Source: an uncultured Candidatus Saccharibacteria bacterium
Lineage (GTDB): Bacteria; Patescibacteriota; Minisyncoccia; Phycocordibacterales; UBA9973
NCBI GenBank assembly: GCA_964520225.1
Contig: CAZFNV010000001.1
Location: 72,210 to 136,209, forward strand
Direction of reading: 5' to 3'
Length of the DNA stretch: 64,000 nucleotides
The stretch's first letter is position 1, and every line of letters begins with the position of its first letter. Made by a program: the position numbers and the translations under genes. The notes under the pieces were generated by a model. It was given only the letters and a program-made list of their open reading frames with translations, did not search any database and had not been told where the DNA came from. This document shows positions 11,623 to 60,214 of the stretch, piece after piece.

Positions 11623-11830
11623 GAGTGTTTAGAATGTCTCTGCGGAAAAATAAATCTACAAAACGATTAGTGAAACTCTTGTGAGTGTGGAAGCGAACTT
11701 TCTGCAGAAGCAACCTATGATCTCTCGCCTCTTTCCTGTAATCCAAGCCTCGTAGAATTTTCAAATCTATTTTTTTATTTATCTTCTGGATTTCTCTATC
11801 TAGCATTTTTAAATATTGTGATTGTGACAT
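11615..11830 (-). CDS. Small basic hypothetical ORF (71 aa) overlapping the lexA start by 8 nt; the first gene downstream of the LexA box
   Basis: ORF and operon position only. Confidence 0.35.
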   Translation of the reverse strand: MSQSQYLKMLDREIQKINKKIDLKILRGLDYRKEARDHRLLLQKVRFHTHKSFTNRFVDLFFRRDILNTHA

Positions 11831-21038: not shown

Positions 21039-21109
21039 TCGGGCCGCCGCGAATCGAACGCGGTCTAAACGGTCCCAAACCGCTTGTACTACCGGTATAC
21101 TACGGCCCG
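21039..21109 (-). tRNA. tRNA-Pro (anticodon UGG), 71 nt
   Basis: Hand-folded: acceptor CGGGCCG/CGGCCCG, anticodon stem AGCGG/CCGTT with loop TTTGGGA (G37), T-arm CCGCG-TTCGATT-CGCGG. The track ORF 20925..21116 overlaps it and is spurious. Confidence 0.8.
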
Positions 21110-28838: not shown

Positions 28839-28980
28839 GTAAAAAGTATAGCAGGTTGAATGTATCAAAATCTCTATTTACAAAAATAAAATTTTATTGT
28901 AAAAATTAGTGCAGATTAGCCCTTAAATAGGGTATGGTTTTTTGACAACCCTTCTAAAGGAGGACAAAAATGATCATCCT

Positions 28981-37974: not shown

Positions 37975-39420
37975 ATGAAGAGCAAGCTGACCTTCGTGGC
38001 CGCGTTCGTGCTGGTGCTGGTGGCGATCCTCGCCATCGGGTTCTGGACCTCCGAGGTCCAGGCTCAAGAGGTTGCCCCCATGGAGTGGGGGACGATCGAA
38101 GGTGCCAAGGGGACGGCCAACTTGGCCGAGCTCCAAAAGGAGATCAAACGGCTCTCTACGGAGCTTGAAGCAGTTCGTAGAGAAGTGGCCAAGCTCCCTC
38201 AGCTACAACGGGAGCTAAACGAGCTCAAAGCGAGAGGGCAAGCGCCACCATCTGCAACCGCCATCGATGCTTCGCCGCGCATGAGCGCGGCGGCTGAGAC
38301 TGTCCCGAAGGATGAGGCGCGACCTCAGGTCCTCGGCCTCACCTGGGGCCAAGCTGCTCTAGTGGCGCTGTTTCTCGGGTCGGCTTGGGCTTACTACTGG
38401 TGGAGACAACACAAGCCAGAAGAAGTAACTCCAGCAAGACCGAGCGGGATGCCTGGCCTCGCCAGCATCTTTCCGCCAGATCACACAGAAGATCCGTCGG
38501 AGACAGTCGCCTACAATCATGAAAAGAGGCGGCCGCAGTTTCCGCCCGAAAAGAAAGGATGGCGGGAAAAAATGCCTGAGGTGGTACAAAATTGGCTGAG
38601 AGCCAACTTCCCGGGTGCGGGATGGGTCATCCTCCTCGCGCTCATGGGCTCCGCCCAGGCGCAGGAGGCCGGCATCCCGCCGTGCAAGATCGGTCCGATC
38701 TTGGCTGGCGGACTCGTCACCGCTGGGCAGGAGAAGCAAATCCAGATCTCCGTCCGCGGATGCGGAGAGGTGAAGGGGATCAAAACCACAGGAAGCGCTG
38801 TCAGGTTCGGTACGGTGTCTCGTGACGGCAGCATCATCACCACTTCGGCCGTAGTGGAAGAAGATGCGTCTGCATCCACTAGGCCGATCCGTCTCGTTCT
38901 GGAGAACGGAAGCGAGGTGGAGGCTCCGAGAGGGGTCTTCATCATCGTTCGCTCGAAGAGCGAGGAAGACATCCGCCGTGAAGCTGCAGCGGCTACGGCC
39001 AAAGTCAACACGAGAGTGTCCTCCCTGCGGGAGGAGATGATCGCCGGGTTCGCCGAGCTCCGTAAGGAATCTGGCCAGCCTCGCACGGTGGTGCCCCTCG
39101 AGGCATCACCCTCACCCAACCACAAATTGGTCGAGGCAGCCCTCCCGAGCTTGCTCGAGCGGATCGACCGTCTCGAGAAGGCTCCTGTGACGACGTCCAC
39201 ACCAGTCAGCTCGGCCGAGCTGGAGGAGTTGCGAAAGGACATTCGCAAGCTCTTCCATCTCGTCGACGAATTGGCAGAGAATGACCGCCGAATCGCCCGG
39301 ATTCAGGTCGTAGACAAGAAATACTTCGGCCTGAAAAGAACACAGCGGATGTTCAGTCAGCCGACGTTTGACTCGGCCACGGCAATACAGTTGTCGGTCA
39401 GAAAGGAGACGAAGAAGTAA
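37975..39420 (+). CDS. High-GC (foreign-like) secreted membrane protein: signal peptide, coiled coil, TM, second hydrophobic segment, ~100-aa Cys-pair beta domain and a C-terminal coiled coil. Paralog of 39784..40959.
   Basis: Full-length ORF with GC-rich third codon positions and an N-terminal signal peptide MKSKLTFVAAFVLVLVAILAIG. The beta-domain motif IQISVRGCGEVKG...RLVLENGSEV...VFIIVRS aligns with the downstream gene. Confidence 0.6.
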   Translation: MKSKLTFVAAFVLVLVAILAIGFWTSEVQAQEVAPMEWGTIEGAKGTANLAELQKEIKRLSTELEAVRREVAKLPQLQRELNELKARGQAPPSATAIDASPRMSAAAETVPKDEARPQVLGLTWGQAALVALFLGSAWAYYWWRQHKPEEVTPARPSGMPGLASIFPPDHTEDPSETVAYNHEKRRPQFPPEKKGWREKMPEVVQNWLRANFPGAGWVILLALMGSAQAQEAGIPPCKIGPILAGGLVTAGQEKQIQISVRGCGEVKGIKTTGSAVRFGTVSRDGSIITTSAVVEEDASASTRPIRLVLENGSEVEAPRGVFIIVRSKSEEDIRREAAAATAKVNTRVSSLREEMIAGFAELRKESGQPRTVVPLEASPSPNHKLVEAALPSLLERIDRLEKAPVTTSTPVSSAELEELRKDIRKLFHLVDELAENDRRIARIQVVDKKYFGLKRTQRMFSQPTFDSATAIQLSVRKETKK

Positions 39421-39487
39421 TGAAGCTTGGGTAGCCCGGTGACACCCTAAGATCACCGGCAGGTGAAGGCCCTGATCGCCTTCGATA

Positions 39488-39526
39488 GGCCCGGCGCGTT
39501 TTACGCGCTGGGCCTTTAACTTTTCT
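39488..39526 (+). terminator. Rho-independent terminator (GGCCCGGCGCG-UUUUA-CGCGCUGGGCC followed by a U-rich tract)
   Basis: Seen in sequence. Confidence 0.6.
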
Positions 39527-39570
39527 ATAAAAAACCAAAACACACATATTTTAAATAAGCAATAATATTC

Positions 39571-39599
39571 TTGACATTTTAGGTAAAATATGCTAATAT
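39571..39599 (+). promoter_or_regulatory. Sigma70-like promoter TTGACA-17-TAATAT (TGcTAATAT extended -10) in the AT-rich spacer between the two high-GC genes
   Basis: Seen in sequence. Confidence 0.5.
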
Positions 39600-39783
39600 A
39601 TTAAGATATAGTTCTTTGACTTTTTACTTCTAAAATCCCGTAGTAGATCCTAATAGCTTTAGGATTCACTACAGGATATATTCTACCTACATATATTTGG
39701 ACGAGGCAGATAGCGCCCCTAAGGGGCATTACCTGCTTCGCCCAAATTTTTTGGGTGATAGAAACTTCCTGAGGAGGAAGACC

Positions 39784-40959
39784 ATGACGAAGATCATGTC
39801 GTTCGTTCTCGCGCTCGTGCTGTCGTCGTTCGTCGCCGGCGCCCAGGAGGTCCCCGTCCGGGACTTTCCGCCCGAGACGACGCCGACGGCGTCGCCCACG
39901 GCCACGCCCCGCCCCACCCCGGCCGCCAACGCGGTGGCCCCGACTCCCGAGAAGGAGGAGGAGTCCTGGCCGTGGTGGATGCTCCCAATCGGAGTTTTGA
40001 GCGGGATCGTAGCGATCGGAGGCGGGATCTGGTTCTTCTTCTGGCGCAAGCCGAAGGAGAAACCGGCGCCTCGTCGCCCCATCGGGCACGAGGATGCGGA
40101 TGAGCCGCCGCACCACCACGGTGGTGGGCACGGCACGGCCATCGCCCTCTTGCTCAGCCTGACCCTCGTGGGTCAGGTCTGGGCACAGACGCCCGCGCCC
40201 TCGCCGACCGCTACGCCGGCTTCGCCGGCGTGCGAGATCGTGAAGGTCATCAGTGAGCACACCGTGGTTCGGAGCGTTCCGAACCCGGTGACCAAACCGG
40301 CGGACGTCGAGTTCCGTCTCGCCGTCCGGGGTTGCGAAACCCCGGCGGTGAAGGGGGTCGAGGCCGCCGCACGCGGCGTCTCGTTCACCGACGTCACCCG
40401 CGAGGGTGACGTGGTCAAGGCGAAGGTGGTCGTCACCACCGACGCCGAGACGGGCCCTGCCCGCCTTCGCCTCGTCCTCGCGGACGGGTCGAAGGTAAAG
40501 AGCCTGGAGAACGTTTTCATCGACGTTCGTTCGGCCGAGGTCGCCGCGGCCCACAAGGTCGCGATGGCCGAAATCTCCCGTGCGTCCTCCGTCGCTCACA
40601 AGGCGGCGAAGGACGTCGCGACGATCCGAACCGAGCTCGCTCGGGTCGAGGCGGACCTCGGGCGGCAGCTCGCTTCCGTGGAGGCTTCGGCCTTGACGGA
40701 GGCGCAGGTGCGCGCGATCGTCGTCGAGGCCCTGTCTCCTTTGTACAAGGAGATCCAGGTTCTCGCGCGGGTGGACGATGCCATCGCTGGCAATCTCCAC
40801 GAGCTCGCCTCCGCCACCGAGTTGGTGGCCAAGGAGAAGGTGAAGAAAAGCACCTTCGGGGGTAAGAAGCCCCACAACCTCGAGGCCGCCAAGATGGCGG
40901 AGGAGATCAGGAAGAACCTCTCGCTGGAAGGTGAGGGAGGAAAGGAGGACGAATCGTAG
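39784..40959 (+). CDS. High-GC (foreign-like) secreted membrane protein, paralog of 37975..39420: signal peptide, Pro/Thr linker, TM, His/Gly-rich loop, second hydrophobic segment, Cys-pair beta domain, coiled coil
   Basis: The start is taken at the ATG at 39784 (MTKIMSFVLALVLSSFVAGAQE) with SD GAGGAGGA. Beta domain FRLAVRGCETPAVKG...RLVLADGSKV...VFIDVRS. The long antisense ORF 39601..40986 is a GC artefact. Confidence 0.6.
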   Translation: MTKIMSFVLALVLSSFVAGAQEVPVRDFPPETTPTASPTATPRPTPAANAVAPTPEKEEESWPWWMLPIGVLSGIVAIGGGIWFFFWRKPKEKPAPRRPIGHEDADEPPHHHGGGHGTAIALLLSLTLVGQVWAQTPAPSPTATPASPACEIVKVISEHTVVRSVPNPVTKPADVEFRLAVRGCETPAVKGVEAAARGVSFTDVTREGDVVKAKVVVTTDAETGPARLRLVLADGSKVKSLENVFIDVRSAEVAAAHKVAMAEISRASSVAHKAAKDVATIRTELARVEADLGRQLASVEASALTEAQVRAIVVEALSPLYKEIQVLARVDDAIAGNLHELASATELVAKEKVKKSTFGGKKPHNLEAAKMAEEIRKNLSLEGEGGKEDES

Positions 40960-41129
40960 AAGTAGTAAGGGGTGAGGTCGCGACACCCAAAGTTCGCGAC
41001 AACGGTAGTGGATCCCGATGATCTACAATATCAAGAGCCAGCACGTACCCCAAGAAAGGAGGAACGCTGGCTCTTTAACATTTATGGGCAACACTAGCGA
41101 GAAAATTTTTTAAATAATATAATTAATAA

Positions 41130-43577
41130 ATGCCAAAACTATCTTTAGATTTAAGTAGTCAACCAATCGCAAAAAGTAAAGACGTTCCGCCGCAAAAAGG
41201 GCTGGAAGAAAAATTGAAAAAATTTAAGGCAGAAACTTTAGAAATACTTCAGGCAAATGTGAATGATGTAGGTTTTCTAGTTGAAAAAAAGAAGAGTGAA
41301 TGGTTCGCGAAGCAGTTCGCAGAACTTTCCACCAAAGCACCAAAAGGAACATTGGGGAGATTTCTAAAAGGGCTCGAAAAGTCATTTAAGTCAGATGCGG
41401 AAGTTGCTAAAAAGAAGCTGGATGCGGAAAACAAAGGAGTGCTAACAAAGGTCTCGAGCGTGGCACATTTGGCAAAAAATGTTTTACGTCCGATTCGCCT
41501 TATAATGGATGTCACAGGAATGTCGCCAGCTGGAGCACAAAGGCTAGTAATGGCCGGAGGGATGCTAACTTCACGAGTACTCGGCGCAAGTAAGGAGGCT
41601 CGTTTTGCGAATGAAAAACTCATAGAACAAACTCGCGGTGGTACCACAGAAGCGGATATCCAAAAAGCTGAAGAAGAAGCCTGGAGAATATACAATCGGG
41701 CTAGGTTAGATTCTGGTGTTCAAATTCCACCTGAAGATGTTGAATATTATAAAAGCGGAGAAGCGGGGGTAAAACACAATGTTACAGTTGATGCGCTCAA
41801 GAAAGCGTATTTAAAAGGTATTCCAAAAGATTTACAAGAAAGACTCAAAAAAGACACAGGAGCAGTTTATGATCTCACTCAAAGAATTTTAAGAAGGTCT
41901 TTAGAGCTGAGTGTTGCCAAGTTGAATAATAATATAAGAAAAATAAAGGAGAATAAAAAACTTTCGGCTGAAAAAAAGAAGGCGAAGACGGAAGAGCTTT
42001 TGCGTTGGTGGGAAAGGGGGCTTATGGATTATGATCGCGCCTTAACACAGGCAGGTACAGTAGACAAATTTGCAGTTCTCGCGCGCTACGGAGAAACAGC
42101 CGCAAAAACATTAGTCCGTGCAGCGACATTGCAAACAGCCTACCTAACCCTAGAGAAAGTTTGGGAAGGGCTGGCAAAGATAGGAGCAAGTCTGGCATCA
42201 CAAGACGATTTTAGCGCGTATGATCTAAAGGCAAATCTGAAAGTAAAAGAACTGGCCACGGCAAGGTTAACAAAAATTGCAGAGAAAGCCGAGCTCGCAC
42301 AAAAAAATTTAGAAGCAAATAAGGCAGCAGAAGCAAGGTGGCGAGCTGATACAATGTGGGGACAACCGACAAAGGTACCCATGGCACCTGCGACAACAGA
42401 AGTCGAAACACCACAAACAACAACTCCGACAGGACCTACTCCTACTCTAGAGTCTACTCCAGAGGGAGCACAAGTAAAAACAGAAATCTCAGAGGAAAAA
42501 CCTGAGGTTAATGTTACACCAACAGAAGCAACACATGGGGTAGAAGAAACTCCAGAAAAGCCTCGAGAATTTGCGGACGAAGAAGATACAGAAGTTGCCC
42601 CTACTGAAACAAAGGCAGAAGAAGTGGTAACACCAACTGCGCCAGCAGAAACACCAGCAACGCCAGAAGAAATGACCGAAGAGCCTAGAGATTTTTCTGA
42701 GGAGGAGGAAGTAATGAAAATTCCTATGGGTGGCAATGAAAACCCACTAAGAACTGAAAGCTTAGAAGAGTTAGAAGCATCAGACGAAGACACAACCAAA
42801 GAGGAGCTAGGTGATAAACATAAGAAGTTTGGTTTTGAGGTTAATAAACGAGAGGAAGTAAAATTACATCCAGAACAAACAGAGTACTTGAGAGGTATCG
42901 GTGTACCTGAGGAAAAAATGGGCGACCCTGAAGCTATACGCCAATACTTAGAAGGAGATGTGCCAGAATCTGATGAGGCGCCAATACACATGACGGCTGA
43001 ATATAATCCAGGAAACATATCTGCGGATGTAGACACTACTGAAGAAATTGCTGGAGAAGAAACCACACCAAAAAATAGTATAGAAAAAGTAATAAAAAAG
43101 TTGGAGCACGCATATGGAGAGCCTGGGAAAATAGAAACTGAGTACTTAGAAGACAAGGAGATAGTCCCAGAGCAAGCCGAGATGGTAGAAGAGGCTCCAG
43201 TCCAAGAAAACATTACAGAAGAGATTGCAGGGAATAGGTACGACCTGTCGCCCGAGGCTCTACAAGAAGTAGATACGGCATACAACGATGCCCTACACAA
43301 GCTTGCTTATGGTGAAGAAACGAAACTTGCAGGAACAAAGATATCTACATTCCTACCAAAAAATCCAAAAATAATTGCCGAGGGTTTTGATATGGAAGGG
43401 GTTAAAACTCCAGTGCATTCCTATCTCGAAAAAGTTCGCGCCATAACTGGAGTAAAGCCCAAGCTTGGTGGATGGTTTAGTAGGGAAGAAAATGTAGAAA
43501 AATATCTTGCGCGCGCGCTACAATACGCTGCAGCAAGGAATGACGGCACCCTGGAAAAACTCAAGATAGTCGGCTAG
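41130..43577 (+). CDS. Large (815 aa) acidic hypothetical protein with a Thr/Pro/Glu-rich low-complexity centre; no TM
   Basis: ORF spanning the whole interval and tightly spaced to uvrD. Confidence 0.5.
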   Translation: MPKLSLDLSSQPIAKSKDVPPQKGLEEKLKKFKAETLEILQANVNDVGFLVEKKKSEWFAKQFAELSTKAPKGTLGRFLKGLEKSFKSDAEVAKKKLDAENKGVLTKVSSVAHLAKNVLRPIRLIMDVTGMSPAGAQRLVMAGGMLTSRVLGASKEARFANEKLIEQTRGGTTEADIQKAEEEAWRIYNRARLDSGVQIPPEDVEYYKSGEAGVKHNVTVDALKKAYLKGIPKDLQERLKKDTGAVYDLTQRILRRSLELSVAKLNNNIRKIKENKKLSAEKKKAKTEELLRWWERGLMDYDRALTQAGTVDKFAVLARYGETAAKTLVRAATLQTAYLTLEKVWEGLAKIGASLASQDDFSAYDLKANLKVKELATARLTKIAEKAELAQKNLEANKAAEARWRADTMWGQPTKVPMAPATTEVETPQTTTPTGPTPTLESTPEGAQVKTEISEEKPEVNVTPTEATHGVEETPEKPREFADEEDTEVAPTETKAEEVVTPTAPAETPATPEEMTEEPRDFSEEEEVMKIPMGGNENPLRTESLEELEASDEDTTKEELGDKHKKFGFEVNKREEVKLHPEQTEYLRGIGVPEEKMGDPEAIRQYLEGDVPESDEAPIHMTAEYNPGNISADVDTTEEIAGEETTPKNSIEKVIKKLEHAYGEPGKIETEYLEDKEIVPEQAEMVEEAPVQENITEEIAGNRYDLSPEALQEVDTAYNDALHKLAYGEETKLAGTKISTFLPKNPKIIAEGFDMEGVKTPVHSYLEKVRAITGVKPKLGGWFSREENVEKYLARALQYAAARNDGTLEKLKIVG

Positions 43578-46714: not shown

Positions 46715-48310
46715 GTGGAAATATTCAGAAAAATACGCCTATATATACAGTCTACGCCAATCACATTGGAATCCTGGTTAGTGTCTTTTGTCGGAATTGT
46801 GCTAGTAAGGATTTCTTTTGAGCAATTTTCGAGCTATCTACCCCGACATTTTGTGCTTTTAGACTTGCCGACAATTATGCACTACGCGTACGCCTTCCTC
46901 GCGATCAGTGCTCTATTTATGGTGATCATGAGAATTTTCACCAATCTAAGCCTCCACGAGATAATCGTAAGCTCGACTTTTGCACTGCTAATAATATGGA
47001 TCCCCCCGGTATTCGACTTAGCGTCGAGCGGAATAGGTGGACACACTATTGGTTATATTTTTGTGTCGGGACCAGAGCTGTTAGCCAGGTTCACAATGTT
47101 CTTCGGCGCCAACACCACCACTGGAGCCACTTTGGGTGTTCAGCTAGAAATAATTTTGGCCCTGATTATATGTTTCACGTACATTTTTCTTATCACTAAA
47201 AATATCTGGCGTAGCTTGGGAGCAACGATTTCTTTCTACTGCGCTATTTTTTTCTTATTTAATTTACCTTCATTCATAGCCCTGGCGTTACCAGCAGGCG
47301 CCACGCCATTTGATACCATAGCCAGAGCGCTCGCCGATTCTAATATAATCCAAAACAATATTCACCCTGAGTGGAGCACAACGCGCCTAGCGCTAGTGCA
47401 TCTTGGATTCAATAAAGCAATGGCTGGCGTACACATTATAATTGTGATGCTTTCGGTGGTTCTACTGGCTTATCTAGACATGCGTACCAAGTTTATTGCT
47501 GTAGCTAAAAATAGCCGAGTACTCCGACTAGCTTGCTACTGTCTGATGTTTGTTTTCGGAAGCCTACTGGCTGGTGAGAATCTTGGAGGCTGGGTAGATA
47601 TTCAGGGTTATATTTTGGCGCTCATATCTATAGTTTGCGCTTGTATATTCAGCATATGCCAGAACGACCTTCACGACGAAGAGATCGACAGGATTTCTAA
47701 TGCTTCTCGCCCACTCGTATCTGGGAAATTATCACGAGAGGATATGTCCTTGGTTTCAAAAATATTTTTATTGTTCAGCCTTATGACCGCCTATGTGGCT
47801 GGTCATTATGTGTTGGTGTTCATTTCCATTTTTATACTTCTCTACTATATTTATTCCAACCCGCCCCTGCGCCTCAAAAGAATTCCGATACTTAGCTCTT
47901 TATTGATAGGCCTAGCATGTATGTCGCTAATAATGGCAGGGTTTTTTTTGATGAGTGAAGACAAAAACATTGTCGCTTTTCCGGTAGAATTAATTTTACC
48001 CACAATACTATTATTTACATTGGCATCCAGCATACGAGATATAAAGGACGTAGAAGGAGATAGTGCTTCTGGCATATACACCCTGCCCGTACTGCTTGGC
48101 GTAGAAAAAACAAAAAAATTACTCGGGGGACTAATGTTCATACCAATACTTATTTCACCTGTGTTTTTTGACTCGGCAACTTTATGGTTACCAGCCATCG
48201 TGACCAGTATACTTTCTTGGTATTTTATAAATGCCAAGAATTATGCGGAGTGGAAAATTTTTGTTTTATATATTATATATTTCACAATAATTATTGTGAG
48301 TGTATTTTAA
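46715..48310 (+). CDS. UbiA-family prenyltransferase fused to an additional N-terminal multi-TM domain (GTG start)
   Basis: NDLHDEEIDRISNASRPLVSG (UbiA NDxxDxxxD) in the C-terminal half; about 14 TM segments in total. Confidence 0.6.
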   Translation: MEIFRKIRLYIQSTPITLESWLVSFVGIVLVRISFEQFSSYLPRHFVLLDLPTIMHYAYAFLAISALFMVIMRIFTNLSLHEIIVSSTFALLIIWIPPVFDLASSGIGGHTIGYIFVSGPELLARFTMFFGANTTTGATLGVQLEIILALIICFTYIFLITKNIWRSLGATISFYCAIFFLFNLPSFIALALPAGATPFDTIARALADSNIIQNNIHPEWSTTRLALVHLGFNKAMAGVHIIIVMLSVVLLAYLDMRTKFIAVAKNSRVLRLACYCLMFVFGSLLAGENLGGWVDIQGYILALISIVCACIFSICQNDLHDEEIDRISNASRPLVSGKLSREDMSLVSKIFLLFSLMTAYVAGHYVLVFISIFILLYYIYSNPPLRLKRIPILSSLLIGLACMSLIMAGFFLMSEDKNIVAFPVELILPTILLFTLASSIRDIKDVEGDSASGIYTLPVLLGVEKTKKLLGGLMFIPILISPVFFDSATLWLPAIVTSILSWYFINAKNYAEWKIFVLYIIYFTIIIVSVF

Positions 48311-48312
48311 AT

Positions 48313-49086
48313 ATGAAAAATCATCGGGCGAAAAAATCTCTAGGGCAAAATTTCTTGAAATCCACTAGCGCCTTGCGGGCGATAGTAGAAGCAGGAGAGA
48401 TAAAGAGTGGAGAAACTGTGCTTGAAATTGGCCCCGGCAAAGGAGCGCTTACAGAACAGCTTCTAGCTAGTAGCACTCAGGTGATAGCTGTCGAGAAAGA
48501 CAGACAACTTGTAGAACTATTAAAAAATAAATTCGCAAAAGAAATCGAAGCCGGGAAATTAGTGCTAATTAATGATGATATTTTAGAATTTCTTCCTAGC
48601 GCCTACAGCCTAAAGCCTAGTGCCTACAAAGTTATCGCCAACATTCCGTACAACATCACCGGCGCCATAATAAAAAAATTCCTAACTGGAAACGAACAAC
48701 CTGAGAGGATGGTACTCATGGTGCAAAACGAAGTTGCGAAAAGGATCGTAGCTTCTGATAAAAAGGAGAGCCTTCTTTCTGTTTCAGTGAAAGCATACGG
48801 AAACCCTGAAATAATTCTGAAGGTGCCAGCGCGGTACTTCTCTCCAGCGCCTCAAGTAGATTCGGCGGTAATAGTGATCAAAAACATTTCCCGTGAATTT
48901 TTCACAGAAAATAAAATTTCTGAAGCACGATTCTGGGAGGTGGCACATGCCGGATTTGCCCATAAACGCAAAAAGCTTTCTGGCAACCTAAAGGGGATAG
49001 TAAGTGAAGACTCACAAAGATCTATAGGTGATAAGCGGGCAGAAGACCTGTCTCTTTCAGACTGGGTTAAAATATGTCGAGCATAA
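48313..49086 (+). CDS. rsmA: 16S rRNA (adenine1518/1519-N6)-dimethyltransferase
   Basis: LGQNFL, VLEIGPGKGALTE (SAM binding) and NIPYNIT motifs. The start is taken at the ATG at 48313. Confidence 0.85.
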   Translation: MKNHRAKKSLGQNFLKSTSALRAIVEAGEIKSGETVLEIGPGKGALTEQLLASSTQVIAVEKDRQLVELLKNKFAKEIEAGKLVLINDDILEFLPSAYSLKPSAYKVIANIPYNITGAIIKKFLTGNEQPERMVLMVQNEVAKRIVASDKKESLLSVSVKAYGNPEIILKVPARYFSPAPQVDSAVIVIKNISREFFTENKISEARFWEVAHAGFAHKRKKLSGNLKGIVSEDSQRSIGDKRAEDLSLSDWVKICRA

Positions 49087-50076: not shown

Positions 50077-51837
50077 ATGCTAAAGAAGCTGATAAAAAAA
50101 TGGAGGGTTGAAAAGTTTATAGCTGGGCTAATGATATGCGCTATCCTCACGCCTGTGTTCGCAACCTTTATGGCACCGCGACAGGTGGAAGCCCAGTATG
50201 TTGACCCCTTTAATGCTGGCGCCTGGATTAAAGATTTGATAAACCAGACATTTAAACAAATAAAAATGCACGTGGGGAGAATACTACTCAACAGGCTCAA
50301 CCAAAGCGTTACGAAATGGATAGCTTCAGGATTCCACGGCAACCCCTTCTACCTAGAGAATTCGAAGTCGTTTTTCAAAGATATAGTTAAATATGAGGTG
50401 AAGAATATAGTAGATACTTATGCATACAATAGGGACAAGTTCCCGTTCGGGCGTAGTTTTGCTTTAAACACAATCTCTGCTTATCAACGCAACCTAGAAG
50501 ACAACACAGCCTACACTCTCAGCCGAGTTATTAATGACCCGGTTTTCCTGGAAAACTATAGAAATGATTTCAATGTGGGTGGATGGGATGGATTCTTCAT
50601 CAACACCCAGTATCCGCAGAACAACTATATAGGCTTTCAGATGCTCGCAACAGAAGAGTTGGCGCGCAAGCTAGACGGAACCGCTCAAACTGCAGCCCAG
50701 AAAGTAAACACTATACTTGAGCAAAGTGGAGGATTTTTAGCTCCGCAGGTATGTGCAGACCCTGGCACAAAATACAACAATGGTAAAAACGAATTCTTGC
50801 AACCAAGATTTGATATGGCAAAATTTGAAAGAGACAATCCTTATAACTGTGATTCCTCTGATTCTCTGGGTTTCGCAATTTGTAATGACCAATGGAACGC
50901 AAAGCTTGAAAAAGAAAAAGCCGACTGGGCGAAAGATAACACTTGTAAAAACTTAGTGACCACGACCCCTGGGAGTGTGGTAGCTAACCAGATAGAAACA
51001 ACCCTGCAATCCAAGATAAGACAAACAGAGCTAGCTGCTGCTATGGGTAACGCTCTGGCAACAGGATTCGGACTTTTGTTAGACAGCCTTCTTCAGAAAG
51101 GCCTGACCAAGTTAGGAGGTGTGCTAGATTCCACGGCAGGCACAGATACGGTTAACCTTAGACCTAATGCTGTAGGGGGAAGTGGGGTAAATGTAGAAAC
51201 GTGCCAGAGCGTGGGCTCAAGCATCGCAACAGGTAACGCATCCGGCTACACCCAAGAAGGCGAGTACCTGAACCTAGACATCGAACTAAACAACTCCGGA
51301 GCAAGCGAATCTTGCACTAGCGTAAGCGTGCCAGGAGGAACACCGCCAGATTTGTCGGAATTTAATCGATACCCCATTCCTGGCGGTGGCAGTGTAGATA
51401 ACCCTCCTCCGGCTGGTGGCTGTGGTGGAGGCGACAACGAACATTGCACCTGTAAAGCCAATAACGATCTAGATGGTTTGGGGCTGGGTATATTCTCGAA
51501 ATACAGAGCGGCTGTGGTGGCAGCGAGAGATGCAGTACATGCTAACCCAAGCCCAGCAGTCGGACTTGATGCCAACGGCAACTTCCTAGGCTATTCATAT
51601 GGTGACACTTATGCTAAAGCCATAGTCTGCGAGCTTCGCAAAGCAGGCTACCTAGCCGACGGAGTGAACGATGAGATAGGTGTGGCGCGAACAGGTGACA
51701 CCTTCCAAGAAAACTTCGATGTATATTCTAGCATCGGGCTCGTCAATGTCCGCTTCATGGCGTTCTGCACCAGCTTAAATGGCGATGGAGCCTACCCAGA
51801 ATTCAGCACTAGCGGCCGAGGATTCACTTGCCAGTAA
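50077..51837 (+). CDS. Secreted hypothetical protein (586 aa) with Cys pairs and Gly/Pro-rich segments
   Basis: Signal peptide IAGLMICAILTPVFATFMAPRQVEAQ. Confidence 0.5.
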   Translation: MLKKLIKKWRVEKFIAGLMICAILTPVFATFMAPRQVEAQYVDPFNAGAWIKDLINQTFKQIKMHVGRILLNRLNQSVTKWIASGFHGNPFYLENSKSFFKDIVKYEVKNIVDTYAYNRDKFPFGRSFALNTISAYQRNLEDNTAYTLSRVINDPVFLENYRNDFNVGGWDGFFINTQYPQNNYIGFQMLATEELARKLDGTAQTAAQKVNTILEQSGGFLAPQVCADPGTKYNNGKNEFLQPRFDMAKFERDNPYNCDSSDSLGFAICNDQWNAKLEKEKADWAKDNTCKNLVTTTPGSVVANQIETTLQSKIRQTELAAAMGNALATGFGLLLDSLLQKGLTKLGGVLDSTAGTDTVNLRPNAVGGSGVNVETCQSVGSSIATGNASGYTQEGEYLNLDIELNNSGASESCTSVSVPGGTPPDLSEFNRYPIPGGGSVDNPPPAGGCGGGDNEHCTCKANNDLDGLGLGIFSKYRAAVVAARDAVHANPSPAVGLDANGNFLGYSYGDTYAKAIVCELRKAGYLADGVNDEIGVARTGDTFQENFDVYSSIGLVNVRFMAFCTSLNGDGAYPEFSTSGRGFTCQ

Positions 51838-51910
51838 GATATTGCTGACAAAGCAATGGGTTATAAAGTGTAAAGTTGAAAATTGTAAGGTTTGTGATAT
51901 AATACAGCAC

Positions 51911-52129
51911 ATGAAATCGCGAAATTTTACAGCCCTATTTAAGAAAGTTGGCAAGTTCTATGCCGCTTGGGTAGAGGAAGTGCCTGGAGTAAACACCCAA
52001 GGCAAAACTCTGAATGAAGCTCGCGAGAATCTAAAAGAAGCTTTGATGTTAGTCCTAGAAACTCAGCGGCACATAGTCCAAAAAGAAGCAGGCGCTGGCT
52101 ATATAAAAAGAGAAGTGCTCTTTGCATAA
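51911..52129 (+). CDS. hicB: HicB-family antitoxin (UPF0150)
   Basis: FTALFKKVGKFYAAWVEEVPGVNTQGKTLNEARENLKEAL. The start is taken at the internal ATG at 51911. Confidence 0.65.
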   Translation: MKSRNFTALFKKVGKFYAAWVEEVPGVNTQGKTLNEARENLKEALMLVLETQRHIVQKEAGAGYIKREVLFA

Positions 52130-52138
52130 AAACCCCTT

Positions 52139-52333
52139 ATGAAACGCACCGACTTAATAACACACCTGAGAAAAAACGGTGTGATCTTTTTGAGAGAGGG
52201 AAATTCTCATAGTGTTTACTATAATCCAGAAAATGGCCGGGCTTCTACCATACCGAGACACTCCGAGATAAACACTTTCACTGGCCGAAAAATCTGTCGA
52301 GACCTTGGTGTACCTTTGATCCAAATGAGGTAA
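52139..52333 (+). CDS. hicA: HicA-family mRNA interferase toxin
   Basis: KRTDLITHLRKNGVIFLREGNSHSVYYNPENGRASTIPRHSEIN...LGV pattern; 9 nt after hicB. Confidence 0.65.
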   Translation: MKRTDLITHLRKNGVIFLREGNSHSVYYNPENGRASTIPRHSEINTFTGRKICRDLGVPLIQMR

Positions 52334-52434
52334 CTTCTATTCAGAAGACACCGAAAAGCAAAAGGCTGTACACTTAAAATAAAAATAGTGTTAAAATAAA
52401 GAGGTGGGTCCCGTAGTAGATTTTTATTACGATT

Positions 52435-52704
52435 ATGTTCTATGTATACATAATTGAAAGTGTAGTCGGGAAAAACTTATATATCGGCTTCACTAAAGAT
52501 CTCAAGAAAAGACTACTGGAACATAATCAAGGGTTAAATTTTTCTACTAAAAGATATGGTAAATGGAACATTATATACTACGAAGCCTGCGCAGAAGAAA
52601 GCGATGCTAGGCGCAGAGAAAAATACCTAAAAACAACACAAGGAGGGAGGTTGAGAAAAAGAAGAATAAAGGATTATTTATATAAATTGAAAAATTTAAC
52701 ATAA
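52435..52704 (+). CDS. Small stand-alone GIY-YIG nuclease domain protein (second copy)
   Basis: FYVYIIESVVGKNLYIGFTKDLKKRLLEHN...EKYLK. Confidence 0.65.
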   Translation: MFYVYIIESVVGKNLYIGFTKDLKKRLLEHNQGLNFSTKRYGKWNIIYYEACAEESDARRREKYLKTTQGGRLRKRRIKDYLYKLKNLT

Positions 52705-52721
52705 TAAAAATTCACTACAGG

Positions 52722-52811
52722 ATGAAAAGGGTCTGGTTAACAATTCCAATATTCGCACTCGTGCTCTTTTTTGCTTTCTTTGGTGGAGTAAGCGATGCGG
52801 GGGCGGAGGAG
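52722..52811 (+). pseudogene. Duplicated 5-prime end (signal-peptide coding, 30 codons and then a stop) of the TrbL/VirB6-like gene. It is about 90% identical to 53446-53530 and forms an ~89-bp direct repeat flanking the NYN gene.
   Basis: MKRVWLTIPIFALVLFFAFFGGVSDAGAEE* compared with MKRYLLTIPIFALVLFFAFFGGVSDAGAQ... in the downstream gene. Confidence 0.6.
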
Positions 52812-52822
52812 TAAAATAAAAA

Positions 52823-53362
52823 ATGGATAAAGAGCAAGCAAAAAACATAGCTTTCATAGATGGCCAAAATTTATATATGGCAACAAAAGAAAGCGTGGAG
52901 CCTTGGTCTGTCGATTTTACTCGTTTTCGTATTTACTTATTACAAAAGTATGGCGTTGAACGTGCGTATTACCATCTGGGATATTTAGATGAAGAAAATC
53001 AAGATTTATACGAACAAATTCAAAATGCAGGATTTATTTTAGTATTTAAAAAACATAATCCTGCTATGATGGGTAAGAAGAAGGGAAACGTCGATTCTGA
53101 CATAATTTTTTCTGCCATGAGACGCGTCTATAAAAAAGAGAATTTCGATAAAGTTATATTTGTTTCAGGAGATGGTGATTATAAGGCTTTGGTAGATTTC
53201 TTGATTGAAGAGAACAGGTTTGCAAAAATACTCTTCCCAAGCAGGAGAAACTATTCGTCTCTATATAAAGCACTATCAAATAATTTTTTCGCTTTCCTAG
53301 ATAATCCAGACACAAAAGATAAAATAGAGCATAAAAAAGAAAAGGGTGCCTTAGGTAATTAA
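52823..53362 (+). CDS. NYN-domain (LabA-like) protein (second copy), lying between the two copies of the TrbL 5-prime repeat
   Basis: IAFIDGQNLY...VIFVSGDGDYKALVDFL. Its SD (GAGGAG) is supplied by the end of the upstream repeat copy. Confidence 0.7.
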   Translation: MDKEQAKNIAFIDGQNLYMATKESVEPWSVDFTRFRIYLLQKYGVERAYYHLGYLDEENQDLYEQIQNAGFILVFKKHNPAMMGKKKGNVDSDIIFSAMRRVYKKENFDKVIFVSGDGDYKALVDFLIEENRFAKILFPSRRNYSSLYKALSNNFFAFLDNPDTKDKIEHKKEKGALGN

Positions 53363-55919: not shown

Positions 55920-56858
55920 ATGGATGAAAACAAAGAAAAAATTATAAAGGAAGGATTTAATAAACTCCCAGAGCGGATTCGGGAATTTATTCTGTCTGAA
56001 TTTTTCGAAACGTCTCTATTAGAGATAGAGCAGAAATATCAACTAAACCCAGAACAATCGAGCCTTTTAGAACAAGATACAACTTTTGTAGTTATGGGCT
56101 TACTTGGACCAGGAGATTATAGAACAGAATTGTCGCGCAACCTGAATTTTGACCAAGTCAAAATAGACCTAGTCGCAAAAGATGTGGAGCAGAAAATATT
56201 TTCTGCTCTAAATAAAGAGGCACTGGAAGTATCGAGCGAACCAACGCCCGATATGTCCGGCGCGCTGGATCCGCGGATACAAAAACTTCCCGAGGGAATA
56301 AAAAAGATTATTGAAGATTCGAAATATCAGTCTGCACTCTACGATGTGGCTCGCGCCCACAAGCTCAGCATCAGCCAGATGGGCACGCTTGAGCGCCTAA
56401 CCACCGACCTAATAACCGGCACCACCCGGCCTGAAGACTTCCAGAAAACCTTGGCGCGAAGTTTTGCTCTACCTCCAGAAGAAATAGCCAAGCTAGCTGA
56501 TGAAGTAAATAATAAAGTCTTCCGTAAAATTCGCGAGGGGCTAATGATAATGTCGGGTAGAAATCCATCAGAGATAGTAGAACAGCCAGTGGAGCTACCA
56601 GCTGAAGACAAGTCACTACTCAAAACTCACGGCATAGAGGTAGTAGATGAGGTGGCGCCAGAAGAGCCCGAGGTGCACCCGCTCATCGCCCAAAAACTTT
56701 CCGCCCCACTCCAAGTGCCGATAATCAAGACAGACCACAGCCCAACTCCGGCGCCAATAGCTACAACAGAGGCTAAATCTGCCCCAGCACCAGCCGCAAA
56801 ACCAGAATCTAAACCTTACGCCAAAGGCTCAGACCCATACAGGGAAATACCGGAATAA
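55920..56858 (+). CDS. Hypothetical cytoplasmic acidic protein with a Pro/Ala-rich C-terminus
   Basis: ORF only. Confidence 0.45.
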   Translation: MDENKEKIIKEGFNKLPERIREFILSEFFETSLLEIEQKYQLNPEQSSLLEQDTTFVVMGLLGPGDYRTELSRNLNFDQVKIDLVAKDVEQKIFSALNKEALEVSSEPTPDMSGALDPRIQKLPEGIKKIIEDSKYQSALYDVARAHKLSISQMGTLERLTTDLITGTTRPEDFQKTLARSFALPPEEIAKLADEVNNKVFRKIREGLMIMSGRNPSEIVEQPVELPAEDKSLLKTHGIEVVDEVAPEEPEVHPLIAQKLSAPLQVPIIKTDHSPTPAPIATTEAKSAPAPAAKPESKPYAKGSDPYREIPE

Positions 56859-56860
56859 TA

Positions 56861-56890
56861 GGCTCTAGGCATTAGGCCCTAGGCACTAGC
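56861..56890. repeat. Left arm of an imperfect ~30-bp inverted repeat built of GCCTA/TAGGC units (GGCTCTAGGCATTAGGCCCTAGGCACTAGC). The right arm is at 57241-57273.
   Basis: The right arm is ~75% identical to the reverse complement of the left arm. A related unit array lies inside rsmA at 48589-48625. Confidence 0.55.
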
Positions 56891-56899
56891 TATAAATAC

Positions 56900-57259
56900 A
56901 TGAAGACTTACCAAGACTTGATAGTTTGGAAGAAATCTATAGAGCTAGTAATCGCTATATATAGCCTTACGGATAAATTCCCAAGAGAAGAAATATTTGG
57001 CATAACTTCACAAATCCGCCGAGCAGCAGTATCAATACCTTCAAATATCGCTGAAGGTAAAATGCGTGGCGGAAATATAGAATTAAAAAGGTTTCTGCTG
57101 ATCGCTTTTGCTTCGGGCGCGGAACTCGAAACTCAGCTTATAATAGCTAGAAAATTACCTAAAATGGTAAATTTAGATTATAATAAAGTGGATCCTCTTT
57201 TAAATGAGGTTATGAGGATGTTAAATAAAATGATTACTCAGCTAGAGCCTAAAGCCTAG
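56900..57259 (+). CDS. Four-helix-bundle protein of the 23S rRNA intervening-sequence protein family
   Basis: YQDLIVWKKSIELVIAIYSLTDKFPREEIFGITSQIRRAAVSIPSNIAEG...ASGAELETQLIIARKL closely matches the family consensus as I remember it. Confidence 0.8.
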   Translation: MKTYQDLIVWKKSIELVIAIYSLTDKFPREEIFGITSQIRRAAVSIPSNIAEGKMRGGNIELKRFLLIAFASGAELETQLIIARKLPKMVNLDYNKVDPLLNEVMRMLNKMITQLEPKA

Positions 57260-57273
57260 TTGCCTAGCGCCTA
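57241..57273. repeat. Right arm of the inverted repeat flanking the four-helix-bundle ORF (GCTAGAGCCTAAAGCCTAGTTGCCTAGCGCCTA)
   Basis: Seen in sequence. Confidence 0.55.
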
Positions 57274-57276
57274 CTC

Positions 57277-57696
57277 ATGCAATTTAAAGTTCCACAATTT
57301 TTGGATATAGAAGATAAAATTTTCGGACCATTTACTTTCCGAGAATTTGTATACCTCGCTGGTGGGGCAGGGCTGTGTTTCGTACTTTACCGCTTGCTCG
57401 GGCTATATGGTGGAGCAATACCAATAATAATCATAGCCGGATTTTCTTTAGCCTTAGCATTTTACAAACCCAACAATAAGCCATTTATAGAAATGCTACA
57501 AGCAGGGAGTAAATATATGCTACAGAGCAAGTTGTACATATGGCAGAGGAGACAAGAAGAGAGGAAAAGGCCACGCATAGAGAACACCGCCAACACCAGC
57601 ACGGAAGGTCGTAACCCCAGACTAACTGGAAGCAAGCTCCGCGACCTAGCCTGGAGCCTAGATGTATTAGATATGGAACAACATAAACACAGCTAA
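57277..57696 (+). CDS. PrgI-like (VirB3-like) small membrane protein of the T4SS-like system
   Basis: N-terminal VPQFLDIEDKIFGPFTFREFVYL followed by two TM segments; it lies immediately upstream of VirB4. Confidence 0.5.
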   Translation: MQFKVPQFLDIEDKIFGPFTFREFVYLAGGAGLCFVLYRLLGLYGGAIPIIIIAGFSLALAFYKPNNKPFIEMLQAGSKYMLQSKLYIWQRRQEERKRPRIENTANTSTEGRNPRLTGSKLRDLAWSLDVLDMEQHKHS

Positions 57697-57701
57697 TAAA
57701 C

Positions 57702-58340
57702 ATGGCCTTAAGCGCAAAGAGAACTCAAGAGTTTGTGCCTATCCGCGAAATCCGTGACGGTATCGTGGTCTTGAAAGATGACAGCCTGCGTGCACTAGTA
57801 CTCGCGAACTCAGTCAATCTATCTTTAAAATCTGCTGATGAGCAAAAAGCCACGATCCTCCAATTCCAAAACTTTCTAAACACTCTGGACTTTCCGGTTC
57901 AGATATCTGTGCAATCCAGGCGCCTCGACATAGGTCCATACTTGATGCTACTCGAAAACCGACTCAAGGTGCAGACCGAGCCTCTACTCAAACTTCAGAC
58001 CAAAGAATACATCGAATTTATAAAGAATTTCACCGAGTCGGTAAGCATAATGACAAAGAGCTTTTTTATAGTGGTACCCTATACTCATGTAAACATACCA
58101 AAACCAAGCGGTGGAATGTTCAGCTTCTTCTCACGACCTAGTGCTGACGAAAAACGCATGAACGAGAAAGCTGAGTTTGAAGAGAAACGTTCCCAGCTTG
58201 AGCAAAGAGTGGGCGTAATACAAAGCGGGCTCGGTAGATGTGGAATAAAGTCTGTCCAGCTAGGCACTGAAGAGGTGATAGAAGTGTTTTACAAAGTTTT
58301 CAACCCGGGACAGACAGAAGGGCATATTAAGTTGGAGTAG
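57702..58340 (+). CDS. VirB4/PrgJ-like ATPase, N-terminal domain fragment (the gene is split; continues at 58376)
   Basis: EFVPIREIRDGIVVLKDDSLRALVLANSVNLSLKSADEQKATILQFQNFLNTLDFPVQI matches the VirB4 N-domain pattern. Confidence 0.6.
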   Translation: MALSAKRTQEFVPIREIRDGIVVLKDDSLRALVLANSVNLSLKSADEQKATILQFQNFLNTLDFPVQISVQSRRLDIGPYLMLLENRLKVQTEPLLKLQTKEYIEFIKNFTESVSIMTKSFFIVVPYTHVNIPKPSGGMFSFFSRPSADEKRMNEKAEFEEKRSQLEQRVGVIQSGLGRCGIKSVQLGTEEVIEVFYKVFNPGQTEGHIKLE

Positions 58341-58375
58341 TAGATAGCGTGCTAGTATATATCTAAACAAAAACG

Positions 58376-60214
58376 ATGGGGATACTTGATAAAATTTTAG
58401 GAAGAAAGCCAATAGACGACACATTAAATGCGTCCACTTTAGCCGTTCTGCCGGAAGAAATATATGAATCGGCGAATCTCGAGCTTCAAGACGTCATAGC
58501 TCCCTCTGCGCTGAAAATTGATTCGAAATCCATCAACCTGGGGGACAAAATAGCCCGCACATTTTTCATAATTTCTTATCCTAGATTCCTAACCGACAAC
58601 TGGTTCTCGCCAGTTATTAACTTGGATAAGGTTTTTGATATCTCCATATTCATCCACCCTATAGACACCTCACTGGTATTGCGACAATTCCAGAAAAAAG
58701 TGGCCGAGGTGCAAAGTCAGATCAATGTTCGAGAGGCGAAAGGAATGGTACGCGACCCAATGCTCGACACGGCATATCAGGATCTCGAAAGTCTGCGCGA
58801 CAACTTAATTCAGGCCCAAGAAAAAATGTTCGATGTGGGTGTGTATATCACCATATACGCAGACAGCGAGCTAGAATTATTCAAAATCGAGACAGAGATC
58901 AAGTCTATGCTCGAAGCTAAACTTATCTATATAAAACCAGCCCTTTTCCAGCAAGAAGACGGCTTCAAGAGTGTGATGCCTACCAACACTGACATTTTAA
59001 ACATCAACCAGAAACTTAATTCTGAACCTTTGTCTAGTATATTTCCATTTGTATCTTTCGACCTCACTTCTGACAAAGGAATACTCTACGGGGTAAATAG
59101 ACACAACTCTAGTTTGGTCATATTCGACCGTTTTTCATTAGAAAATTACAACTCTATTATTTTTGCCAAGTCCGGCTCTGGTAAATCATATACTACAAAG
59201 TTAGAAATACTGCGCAGTCTAATGTTCGATATTGATGTCATGGTGATAGACCCAGAACGCGAATACGAATTCCTGTCCGAAGCTGTGGGTGGGAGGTATT
59301 TCAACATCTCTATTTCATCAGATCACCATATGAATCCTTTCGACCTGCCGATACCTCGCGAAGACGAAACAGCAGAGGACGTGCTCCGCTCTAATATCAT
59401 TAGCCTAGTCGGTCTCTTTCGCATAATGCTCGGAGGGCTAACACCAGAGGAAGACTCTATGATAGACCGCGCCATCTCAGAAACATACGCGATGAAGGAC
59501 ATCACTCCTGATTCAGATTTCCGCAACATAGAACCGCCCCTGCTTTCCGACTTTGAAATGGTGCTCGGGGGTATGGAGGGAAGTGAATCTTTGCTCTCGC
59601 GTCTGACTAAATACACGCGTGGTTCTTGGGCAACATTCCTCAACCGACCGTCCAATGTGGATATTGATAAAAAATTCGTAGTGTTCTCAATCCGCGACAT
59701 GGAAGACGAGCTCAAACCGGTAGCTATGTATATCATCATGCACTACATCTGGAACGCTGTCCGTAAAAACCTGAAGAAGCGCCTCTTGGTGGTGGATGAG
59801 GCTTGGTGGATGATGAAGTCGGAGGACACGGCATCTTTCCTATACTCCATAGCTAAACGCGGAAGAAAATATTATCTAGGCCTGGCCACTATTACTCAAG
59901 ATGCGGCTGACTTTATGAACTCTCCATACGGGGTACCGATAATTACCAACTCTTCCATCCAAATATTACTGAAGCAGTCAGCAACGACCATTGATGTACT
60001 CCAGAGAACCTTCAACCTTACAGATGAAGAAAAATATCTATTATTGGAATCAAACGTAGGAGAGGGTATATTCTTCGCCGGCACTAAACACGTAGCAATA
60101 AAGATGATCGCTTCCTACACCGAAGACCAGATAATAACCTCCGACCCATCCCAAATACTATCTACTCGTAAAGCAAAAGAAGAACACGAGGAAGTAGAAA
60201 TGAACTCCAGGTAG
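58376..60214 (+). CDS. VirB4/TrbE-like T4SS ATPase, C-terminal ATPase part
   Basis: Walker A AKSGSGKS, Walker B LLVVDEAWWMM and the TITQDAADF region. Confidence 0.75.
   Translation: MGILDKILGRKPIDDTLNASTLAVLPEEIYESANLELQDVIAPSALKIDSKSINLGDKIARTFFIISYPRFLTDNWFSPVINLDKVFDISIFIHPIDTSLVLRQFQKKVAEVQSQINVREAKGMVRDPMLDTAYQDLESLRDNLIQAQEKMFDVGVYITIYADSELELFKIETEIKSMLEAKLIYIKPALFQQEDGFKSVMPTNTDILNINQKLNSEPLSSIFPFVSFDLTSDKGILYGVNRHNSSLVIFDRFSLENYNSIIFAKSGSGKSYTTKLEILRSLMFDIDVMVIDPEREYEFLSEAVGGRYFNISISSDHHMNPFDLPIPREDETAEDVLRSNIISLVGLFRIMLGGLTPEEDSMIDRAISETYAMKDITPDSDFRNIEPPLLSDFEMVLGGMEGSESLLSRLTKYTRGSWATFLNRPSNVDIDKKFVVFSIRDMEDELKPVAMYIIMHYIWNAVRKNLKKRLLVVDEAWWMMKSEDTASFLYSIAKRGRKYYLGLATITQDAADFMNSPYGVPIITNSSIQILLKQSATTIDVLQRTFNLTDEEKYLLLESNVGEGIFFAGTKHVAIKMIASYTEDQIITSDPSQILSTRKAKEEHEEVEMNSR

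Follow-up and report, generated by a model that had tools for sequence, protein, structure and literature searches.

Background

To our knowledge, the intervening sequences (IVSs) of rRNA genes have been without an explanation since 1990, and the four-helix-bundle IVS protein family, for which structures have been solved, has no function known outside diversity-generating retroelements (DGRs). Here we report the analysis of a member of this family from an uncultured Candidatus Saccharibacteria bacterium (GenBank assembly GCA_964520225.1, contig CAZFNV010000001.1, positions 72,210–136,209 of the forward strand; this whole stretch of 64,000 nt is termed "the window" below, and positions given without a locus number refer to it). 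The element is an IVS-type palindromic cassette, in which a four-helix-bundle gene lies between inverted arrays of heptamers, and it is found inside an operon resembling those of type IV secretion systems (T4SS). Its main interest lies in the general pattern that it exposes.

Several parts of this pattern are already known, namely the protein family itself and its occurrence in IVSs, in rRNA insertions of the Candidate Phyla Radiation (CPR) and in cas operons, as well as the inverted repeats of IVSs and their processing by RNase III, the Coxiella heptamers, and the abundance of heptamer arrays in bacteria. The closest known case is the 23S IVS of Coxiella burnetii, where an S23p (PF05635) open reading frame (ORF) occupies a loop closed by a 28-bp terminal stem; its 5' arm is made of tandem GACAGAT heptamers, whose copy number varies between strains, and mapping has shown that RNase III cuts inside the stem where the first repeat begins (PMC4990558). 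ORFs of the 23S_rRNA_IVP type have further been described in 16S and 23S insertions of the CPR (10.1101/2024.02.27.582315) and wedged in cas operons (PMC3936711).

The cassette and its predicted stem

The cassette is composed of the following parts:

56859–56891, + strand: left (5') arm, four TAGGCNN heptamer units plus CTAGC (sequence, direct and inverted repeats, Tandem Repeats Finder, fold)
56900–57259, + strand: four-helix-bundle gene (PF05635 23S_rRNA_IVP / TIGR02436), 119 aa, from ATG to TAG
57240–57273, + strand: right (3') arm, GCCTANN units complementary to the left arm (sequence, repeats, Tandem Repeats Finder, fold)

A sequence-only reading of the window had assigned the 119-aa product to the 23S rRNA IVS protein family, and profile searches bear this out: the match to PF05635 (E 2.7e-34, 118 bits against a cut-off of 33.8) covers profile positions 1–106 of 106, and TIGR02436 ("four helix bundle protein") scores 112.4 bits (cut-off 24). 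The top solved structure is XCC0516 from Xanthomonas campestris (PDB 2gsc, E 1.1e-20), a homopentameric toroid of four-helix bundles. The motif GxxRxxxSxxxNxxE, conserved in the family (PMC3936711), is found at residues 34–53 as G-ITSQI-R-RAAV-S-IPS-N-IA-E-G, with R, S, N and E in register and the G standing farther off than in the consensus. No Shine-Dalgarno-like sequence was seen 5' of the ORF, and no second copy of the ORF occurs within the 64-kb window.

In letters, the left arm reads TAGGC-TC-TAGGC-AT-TAGGC-CC-TAGGC-AC-TAGC (56859–56891), and the right arm, which encodes the final six codons and the TAG stop of the ORF, reads GCTAGA-GCCTA-AA-GCCTA-GTT-GCCTA-GC-GCCTA (57240–57273); in the repeat listing the left arm corresponds to direct repeat D4 and inverted repeats I1–I3, I6 and I7. 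Eight copies of the 12-mer GCCTANNGCCTA were counted in the 64 kb (0.12 expected by chance; none of 100 shuffles reaches eight), and they are confined to three arrays (48601–48626, 56859–56884 and 57247–57273), at all of which Tandem Repeats Finder reports a period of 7, with 4.4 copies in the left arm. The same reading had called for a search of the genome for further GCCTA-unit arrays; the window has three in all, including one within the rsmA gene (see below).

The reading had also expected the GCCTA/TAGGC repeats, taken to be about 30 bp long, to form a long stem. The pairing stands, while the length needs correction, as the arms measure about 33 nt each. In the minimum-energy RNA fold of 56850–57285 they form 29 bp with small internal loops; this fold has an energy of -126.8 kcal/mol (z = -4.7, none of 100 shuffles equally stable), and the 29-bp stem is present in the centroid fold as well. 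The same stem is predicted in 14 of the 14 elements found at this junction (the window and 13 orthologous loci).

As in the IVSs of Coxiella and Leptospira, a PF05635 ORF is thus enclosed by terminal inverted repeats with a stem of about 28–29 bp; as in Coxiella, the 5' arm contains tandem heptamers (here four TAGGCNN units), and the ORF is sense to the host transcript and lacks a good ribosome-binding site (PMC4990558). Unlike in rRNA IVSs, the host transcript of the window cassette is a protein-coding operon. The window ORF is strongly purified by selection (see below), whereas the Coxiella ORF was reported as decaying and probably untranslated (PMC4990558), and RNase III cleavage, shown for the Coxiella IVS, is only proposed for the window cassette.

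Position in the operon

The placement of the element between T4SS genes, likewise claimed from the sequence, is confirmed by its neighbours:

55920–56858, + strand: upstream operon gene, 312 aa, without a family match, 22–40% identity in relatives
57277–57696, + strand: PrgI-family gene (family match), first of the conserved block
57702–58340: TraC-like gene, second of the conserved block
58376–60214: VirB4-TraG P-loop gene, third of the conserved block

A T4SS-pilin-like gene lies further downstream, past the VirB4/TraG ATPase. The TAA stop of the upstream gene (56856–56858) is followed directly by the first TAGGC at 56859, and the final GCCTA ends at 57273, leaving 3 nt between the right arm and the ATG of the PrgI-family gene at 57277. 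The cassette consequently occupies the entire gap from the upstream stop to the PrgI-like start, in the sense orientation of the operon and without room for a promoter of its own; a scan of 52.5–60.5 kb for consensus promoters and terminators returned counts equal to those in shuffles.

Age and conservation

The window belongs to a Patescibacteria genome close to Candidatus Nomurabacteria, and Nomurabacteria or Minisyncoccia are the names borne by the nearest homologues of its ORF. Exact-protein look-ups and the scanning of species-representative genomes gave the orthologous loci: an orthologue with TAGGC/GCCTA arms stands directly before PrgI in 13 distinct loci (L002, L008–L018 and L034 in our numbering). 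Identity to the window proteins ranges from 73 to 88% for the four-helix-bundle protein, 60 to 73% for PrgI, 70 to 79% for the TraC-like protein and 83 to 91% for VirB4, as opposed to only 22–40% for the upstream protein. The ratio of nonsynonymous to synonymous substitution rates (dN/dS, Nei-Gojobori) is 0.04–0.10 relative to the window gene, with a median of 0.08 over all pairs, and the proportion of synonymous differences between the orthologues and the window gene (pS 0.60–0.83) is near saturation. The four-helix-bundle gene is intact and strongly purified by selection, and because dN/dS is low and synonymous sites are near saturation, we conclude that the gene is functional and the arrangement ancient: the cassette is a conserved old occupant of this junction across deeply diverged Nomurabacteria-like genomes, not a recent or unique insertion. 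The TAGGC cores show essentially no variation across 12 aligned orthologous arm pairs, although the left arm encodes nothing, which argues that the arm sequence is constrained or continually homogenised; the alignment contains 26 consensus pairs, nearly all of them without variation.

Architecture across the family

The family is very large: for the 119-aa query, 7902 of 8000 scored candidates pass E <= 1e-10. We surveyed 70 non-redundant homologues of 30–100% identity, whose hosts include Patescibacteria from many classes as well as bins with the labels Nitrospirae, Clostridia, Planctomycetota and Omnitrophota. Complementarity between the two flanks exceeds that of all 100 shuffles in 60 of the 70 elements (median z 7.4); shuffles were made per element, since the comparison of pooled duplex energies with pooled shuffles was uninformative, GC-rich elements dominating the tails. 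At lag 7 the two flanks have a self-similarity of 0.45 and 0.42 and the ORF interior one of 0.27, and 7 is the best lag in 37/70 and 35/70 flanks versus 6/70 ORF controls. The heptamer unit varies by element (TAGGCNN, TAGCTNN, TAGGTNN, TAGTANN, CGTAGTA, CGGTTAT, GCAGCNN, AAGGCNN, GGGGAAA and others) and differs even among copies within one genome (L025, L037, L069). Period-7 inverted arrays with element-specific units thus surround most homologues, in several phyla; we did not find this described as the general packaging of the family in open-access papers and preprints. Cultured organisms show the pattern too, as on Nostoc punctiforme pNPUN01 and on a Geminocystis plasmid four-helix-bundle genes lie between inverted CAGGAGT and GGGAAAA arrays. 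The IVS type of build is therefore not specific to rRNA but the normal packaging of the four-helix-bundle family in ordinary operons.

Both neighbours are encoded on the ORF strand in 52 of the 66 cassettes with close neighbours on each side (p ~4e-13 against a generous expectation of 0.35), and the downstream gene is co-oriented in 62 of 68, with gaps of about arm size. TAGGC-type cassettes, whose proteins are 61–71% identical and whose arms are the same, are found in other operons, between the halves of a split transketolase, between PilB and PilC, between rubrerythrin and desulfoferrodoxin, and between rpe and tkt. From the orientation and from these other operons we conclude that the element relies on read-through transcription, that it has arrived at several sites, and that it is tolerated precisely at the boundaries of cistrons. 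Sense-orientation placement at cistron junctions was not found stated in open-access papers and preprints. For annotation, this accounts for small genes wedged between partners, such as those in split transketolase, PilB/PilC, cmr3/cmr2 and T4SS gene pairs.

Of 60 elements, 44 have three-frame stops in the left arm when it is read in the sense direction, and 50 have them in the right arm when it is read in antisense; in the inside-out directions three-frame stops occur in only 27/60 and 29/60. Random heptamer arrays of matching composition would give 0.44, and random 28-nt windows 0.017. Among the stops in the arms TAG clearly predominates, and the left arm of the window cassette holds TAG in all three frames; since 7 is not a multiple of 3, a stop-bearing unit blocks all frames within three units. 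At L010, L011 and L014 the upstream gene terminates on the first TAG of the array. We report the outward stops as an observation; they may be an adaptation to a place at the end of genes or simply result from a preference for a YTAG motif, any function being conjectural.

The motif TAGGCNN x4 on its own is not element-specific, because at least 120 metagenome loci of 32–72% GC carry it, mostly as solitary arrays, and only four of them have a four-helix-bundle ORF among the matches listed. In a metagenome contig of 62% GC (L112 2447–3029), inverted CACTAGG/CCTAGTG arrays surround an ordinary-looking gene on the opposite strand, which by eye looks like a MaoC-type dehydratase; heptamer array pairs are therefore not limited to small cargo ORFs or to low-GC genomes.

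Similar arrays have been described in Xanthomonas, cyanobacteria and Beggiatoaceae (TAACTGA), and, like those reported here, they have a period of 7, are mostly intergenic, abut start or stop codons and often form convergent inverted pairs (PMC4692102, PMC4679880). X. campestris has 70 convergent inverted pairs of GGGAATC arrays (PMC4692102), and the supplement of that paper lists a GGGAATC x4 array at 622956–622983, which extends over the start of XCC0516, the protein of PDB 2gsc, and has bccP (XCC0517) at a distance of 6 nt. Both papers treat the arrays as G-quadruplex-forming or translational elements, and in the passages and supplement searched we met no link of heptamer arrays to the four-helix-bundle family or to IVSs (PMC4692102, PMC4679880).

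Hairpins without an ORF and nuclease cassettes

The IVS-type build has siblings of two kinds, those that lack an ORF and those that carry a nuclease-family ORF; neither was found stated as a sibling in open-access papers and preprints. The ORF-less TAGGC/GCCTA hairpins are 56–87 nt long, with a short A-rich loop and predicted energies of -23 to -40 kcal/mol. They fill the PrgI/TraC-like and TraC-like/VirB4 junctions in L010, L012, L013, L015 and L034, and L014 has hairpins of the TAGCT type instead. Two of these loci have the following copies:

L010 1140–1220 and 1856–1942: ORF-less hairpins, nearly identical to each other, loop included
L012 10831–10896 and 11542–11615: ORF-less hairpins

The same two junctions are without a hairpin in L002, L008 and L009 (2–5 nt), in L016 and L017 (1–43 nt) and in the window (5 and 35 nt), so that the hairpins at neighbouring junctions are a clean presence/absence polymorphism among relatives. 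Over 1.1 Mb of loci we counted 36 ORF-less hairpins, of which 34 are intergenic, usually touching both adjacent genes; 27 of these 34 lie between co-directional genes. Judged by what characterises miniature repeats, the window holds one cassette and one solitary array in its 64 kb, and several copies as well as filled and empty junctions are seen only in the relatives.

In L023 (Harrisonbacteria) the junction before PrgI is occupied by an ORF of the GxxExxY / PDDEXK_3 nuclease family (8185–8583, within a cassette at 8150–8625; TIGR04256, 98 bits), bracketed by inverted TCACTAA/TTAGTGA heptamer arrays. A DUF559 ORF (11319–11675) is found in a similar cassette of L030 (11010–11807), and L035 contains three four-helix-bundle cassettes, two of them within its T4SS operon.

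Intergenic hairpin repeats that lie within transcription units and are present or absent among relatives are familiar from the Correia elements of Neisseria and from the enterobacterial REP/BIME and ERIC elements; Correia elements have been reported as RNase III substrates. They differ from the present hairpins in having no tandem heptamers, no ORF and one family-wide sequence per genome.

As a side observation, the TraC-like/VirB4 spacer of the window (58341–58375) measures 35 nt, whereas relatives have 4–5 nt or a 72–83-nt hairpin there. It includes a small palindrome, TAGATA...TATCTA, which may be the remnant of a decayed hairpin.

A related array within rsmA

The third array of the window is placed as follows:

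48594–48626, + strand: solitary in-frame GCCTANN array in rsmA, CCTAGCGCCTACAGCCTAAAGCCTAGTGCCTAC, encoding PSAYSLKPSAY

The gene is identified as rsmA by PF00398 (RrnaAD). From homologue alignment its likely start is the ATG at 48313 (MKNHRAKKSLGQNF...); the start given in the ORF list, 48184, overlaps a UbiA-family gene (46715–48310). The sequence-only reading had noted the array, and its in-frame position is borne out, as is the 14-mer and the 12-mer that it has in common with the right arm of the cassette, in permuted order. It is not a clean insertion, however, because the loop that contains the array, bounded by the DIL.F and IANIPYNIT motifs, differs in length from one homologue to another. 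The reading frame is kept because three units make 21 nt, or seven codons. No inverted partner of the array exists within the window. The rsmA of L012, whose protein is 59% identical, has the same array, with about 30 nt identical bar one base; in the same loop L016 has heptamers of the AGCTA type, L023 a flanking inverted pair of a third unit type, and L013 and L034 longer, unrelated insertions. Heptamer arrays thus land or expand repeatedly in this permissive loop, and the array in the window may be what is left of an arm, may stem from gene conversion or may have expanded independently. Compared with the in-frame palindromic insertions of the Rickettsia RPE kind, the array in the window is in frame, single and unpartnered, whereas L023 has an inverted pair at this place.

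A separate observation concerns the rsmA genes of L012 and L016, which have in-frame insertions (with peptides such as PPLLDKERAGVRFLSSPPPNLPLVKGEG) about 100 codons downstream of the heptamer loop, in an otherwise conserved stretch. These insertions, which the rsmA of the window lacks, resemble a different repeat element translated in frame.

Proposed function and alternative explanations

We consider it probable that the locus as a whole is explained by an IVS-type cassette that is co-transcribed with its operon, forms its stem and undergoes processing of the RNase III type. The cassette would be transcribed within the polycistronic operon mRNA, in which the arms would fold into a double-stranded RNA stem of 29 bp. 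As the Coxiella IVS has the same parts in the same order, we propose that this stem is probably a substrate of RNase III, or of a comparable activity specific to double strands, or else has some other role as an intercistronic RNA structure. The cut would separate the poorly conserved upstream part of the message from the PrgI-TraC-VirB4 block and free the four-helix-bundle message. The three-frame TAG stops would halt ribosomes coming from outside, and the element could then abut a host gene or even provide its stop codon. Ribosomes translating the ORF would in turn enter the right arm and open the stem just 5' of the PrgI start codon, and PrgI translation could thereby be coupled to that of the four-helix-bundle ORF. 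As for the origin, a selfish, formerly mobile hairpin element is most likely, the ORF-less hairpins being its miniature form.

Several results weigh against this explanation. With symmetric scoring, G·U and A·C mismatches on the sense strand are balanced (53 versus 46, p = 0.55); an excess of G·U (80 versus 31 A·C) was an artefact of a scoring that favoured G·U, and it vanished with the symmetric one. Arms swapped between 17 TAGGC-type elements pair as well as cognate arms (p = 0.83), and for the 12 aligned orthologues the RNAalifold covariation term is about zero (+0.13), with double changes in 2 of 26 pairs. The arms could be kept as protein-binding or recombination sequences, or be alike through gene conversion among TAGGC arrays. 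No rnc gene is present in the 64-kb window or in the 78 related loci, which says little, as these cover only part of each genome, and no target-site duplication was recognised. Mobility, finally, is deduced from relatives only, because the window holds one cassette and one solitary array.

Since the tests of selection at the RNA level gave no support, a role at the DNA level stays a serious rival, though we think it unlikely. The arrays, as terminal inverted repeats or iterated binding sites, would then serve in transposition, recombination or homing; either the four-helix-bundle protein or a trans-acting factor would bind them, and the RNA stem would be incidental. Invariant cores without covariation and the lack of an asymmetry of G·U over A·C speak for such an element, and the near-identical hairpins at two L010 junctions, together with the presence and absence of hairpins among relatives, point to copying at the DNA level. 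Similar cassettes carry PD-(D/E)XK (GxxExxY) and DUF559 nuclease-family ORFs, whose products could work like homing endonucleases. However, no transposase or recombinase is present in or beside the cassettes, the strong sense-strand bias in operons would be superfluous for a purely DNA-level element, and the arms share sequence with the last codons of the ORF. In addition, the units vary within single genomes (L025, L037, L069), and hence no single host factor can recognise all arrays, and the sole experimental precedent is one of RNA processing.

It is improbable that the protein is a dedicated accessory subunit or regulator of the T4SS, with flanking repeats that merely tune its translation. 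Its gene is indeed fixed at this junction, where each of the 13 distinct orthologous genomes recovered has it, and is conserved like the core T4SS genes, and family members occupy this or the next junction in other T4SS operons (L035, L052, L023). The same kind of protein, 61–71% identical and with the same arms, is nonetheless found in transketolase, type IV pilus and rubrerythrin operons, the junction is held by a GxxExxY nuclease-family cassette in L023, and the family is also met in rRNA genes, cas operons and cyanobacterial plasmids.

The accessory protein Avd of a DGR shares with the 119-aa protein a homologous four-helix-bundle fold and a small, basic character, and PF05635 commonly adjoins DGR reverse transcriptases (PMC10053308), but this identity is highly improbable and was rejected, given that the protein only weakly resembles bAvd (22.7 bits, where Pfam sets a cut-off of 40) and the "Avd protein of DGR" of PHROG (E 2.9e-5), none of the 36 window ORFs scanned against Pfam (including every neighbour at 41–64 kb) is a reverse transcriptase, T4SS genes are the immediate neighbours at every orthologous locus, and the repeat listing contains no template/variable repeat pair, the heptamer arrays being the only repeats.

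Two other candidates were rejected. For an anti-phage defence gene, PADLOC gave no match for the 119-aa protein. For a strict rRNA IVS, the flanks are protein genes and no rRNA family is present in the window at Rfam gathering scores; 16S/23S similarity was likewise absent from the 78 related loci and from the TAGGC-array loci among the matches listed (at least 120).

There is also a bolder proposal, which we offer tentatively and regard as rather doubtful: heptamer-array hairpins would form one unrecognised, phylum-spanning mobile class, with ORF-bearing members (encoding a four-helix-bundle protein or a GxxExxY or DUF559 nuclease) as the autonomous and ORF-less members as the dependent miniature form, and with the four-helix-bundle protein recognising or propagating its own arrays. 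If so, this class would colonise operon junctions, rRNA helices (as the classical IVSs) and permissive protein loops such as that of rsmA, and the rRNA IVSs, the heptamer repeats of cyanobacteria and the heptamer pairs of Xanthomonas would share one mechanism, while the large "four helix bundle protein" family would gain a function. The pattern as a whole connects several unexplained heptamer-repeat phenomena in Xanthomonas and cyanobacteria, and it leads to the predictions that operon mRNAs are cleaved by RNase III at the stems, that each protein is specific to its own heptamer, and that hairpins are gained and lost at junctions.

Other features of the window

Just 5' of the T4SS-like operon, at 51779–53362, lie a small UPF0150-like ORF and an NYN-domain gene (a predicted RNase). 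The window also encodes RNase Y (8185–9717), PNPase (30765–32900) and a tyrosine recombinase (27873–28868). The region 38000–42000 has a GC content of 53–58%, against 37–46% elsewhere in the genome, and big ORFs without a Pfam match are found in it (37975–39420; 39601–40986 on the - strand or 39697–40959 on the + strand; 41130–43577). A tRNA-Pro(TGG) at 21039–21109 on the - strand was predicted by ARAGORN; the Rfam tRNA model is silent there at its gathering score, yet it found the other three tRNAs.

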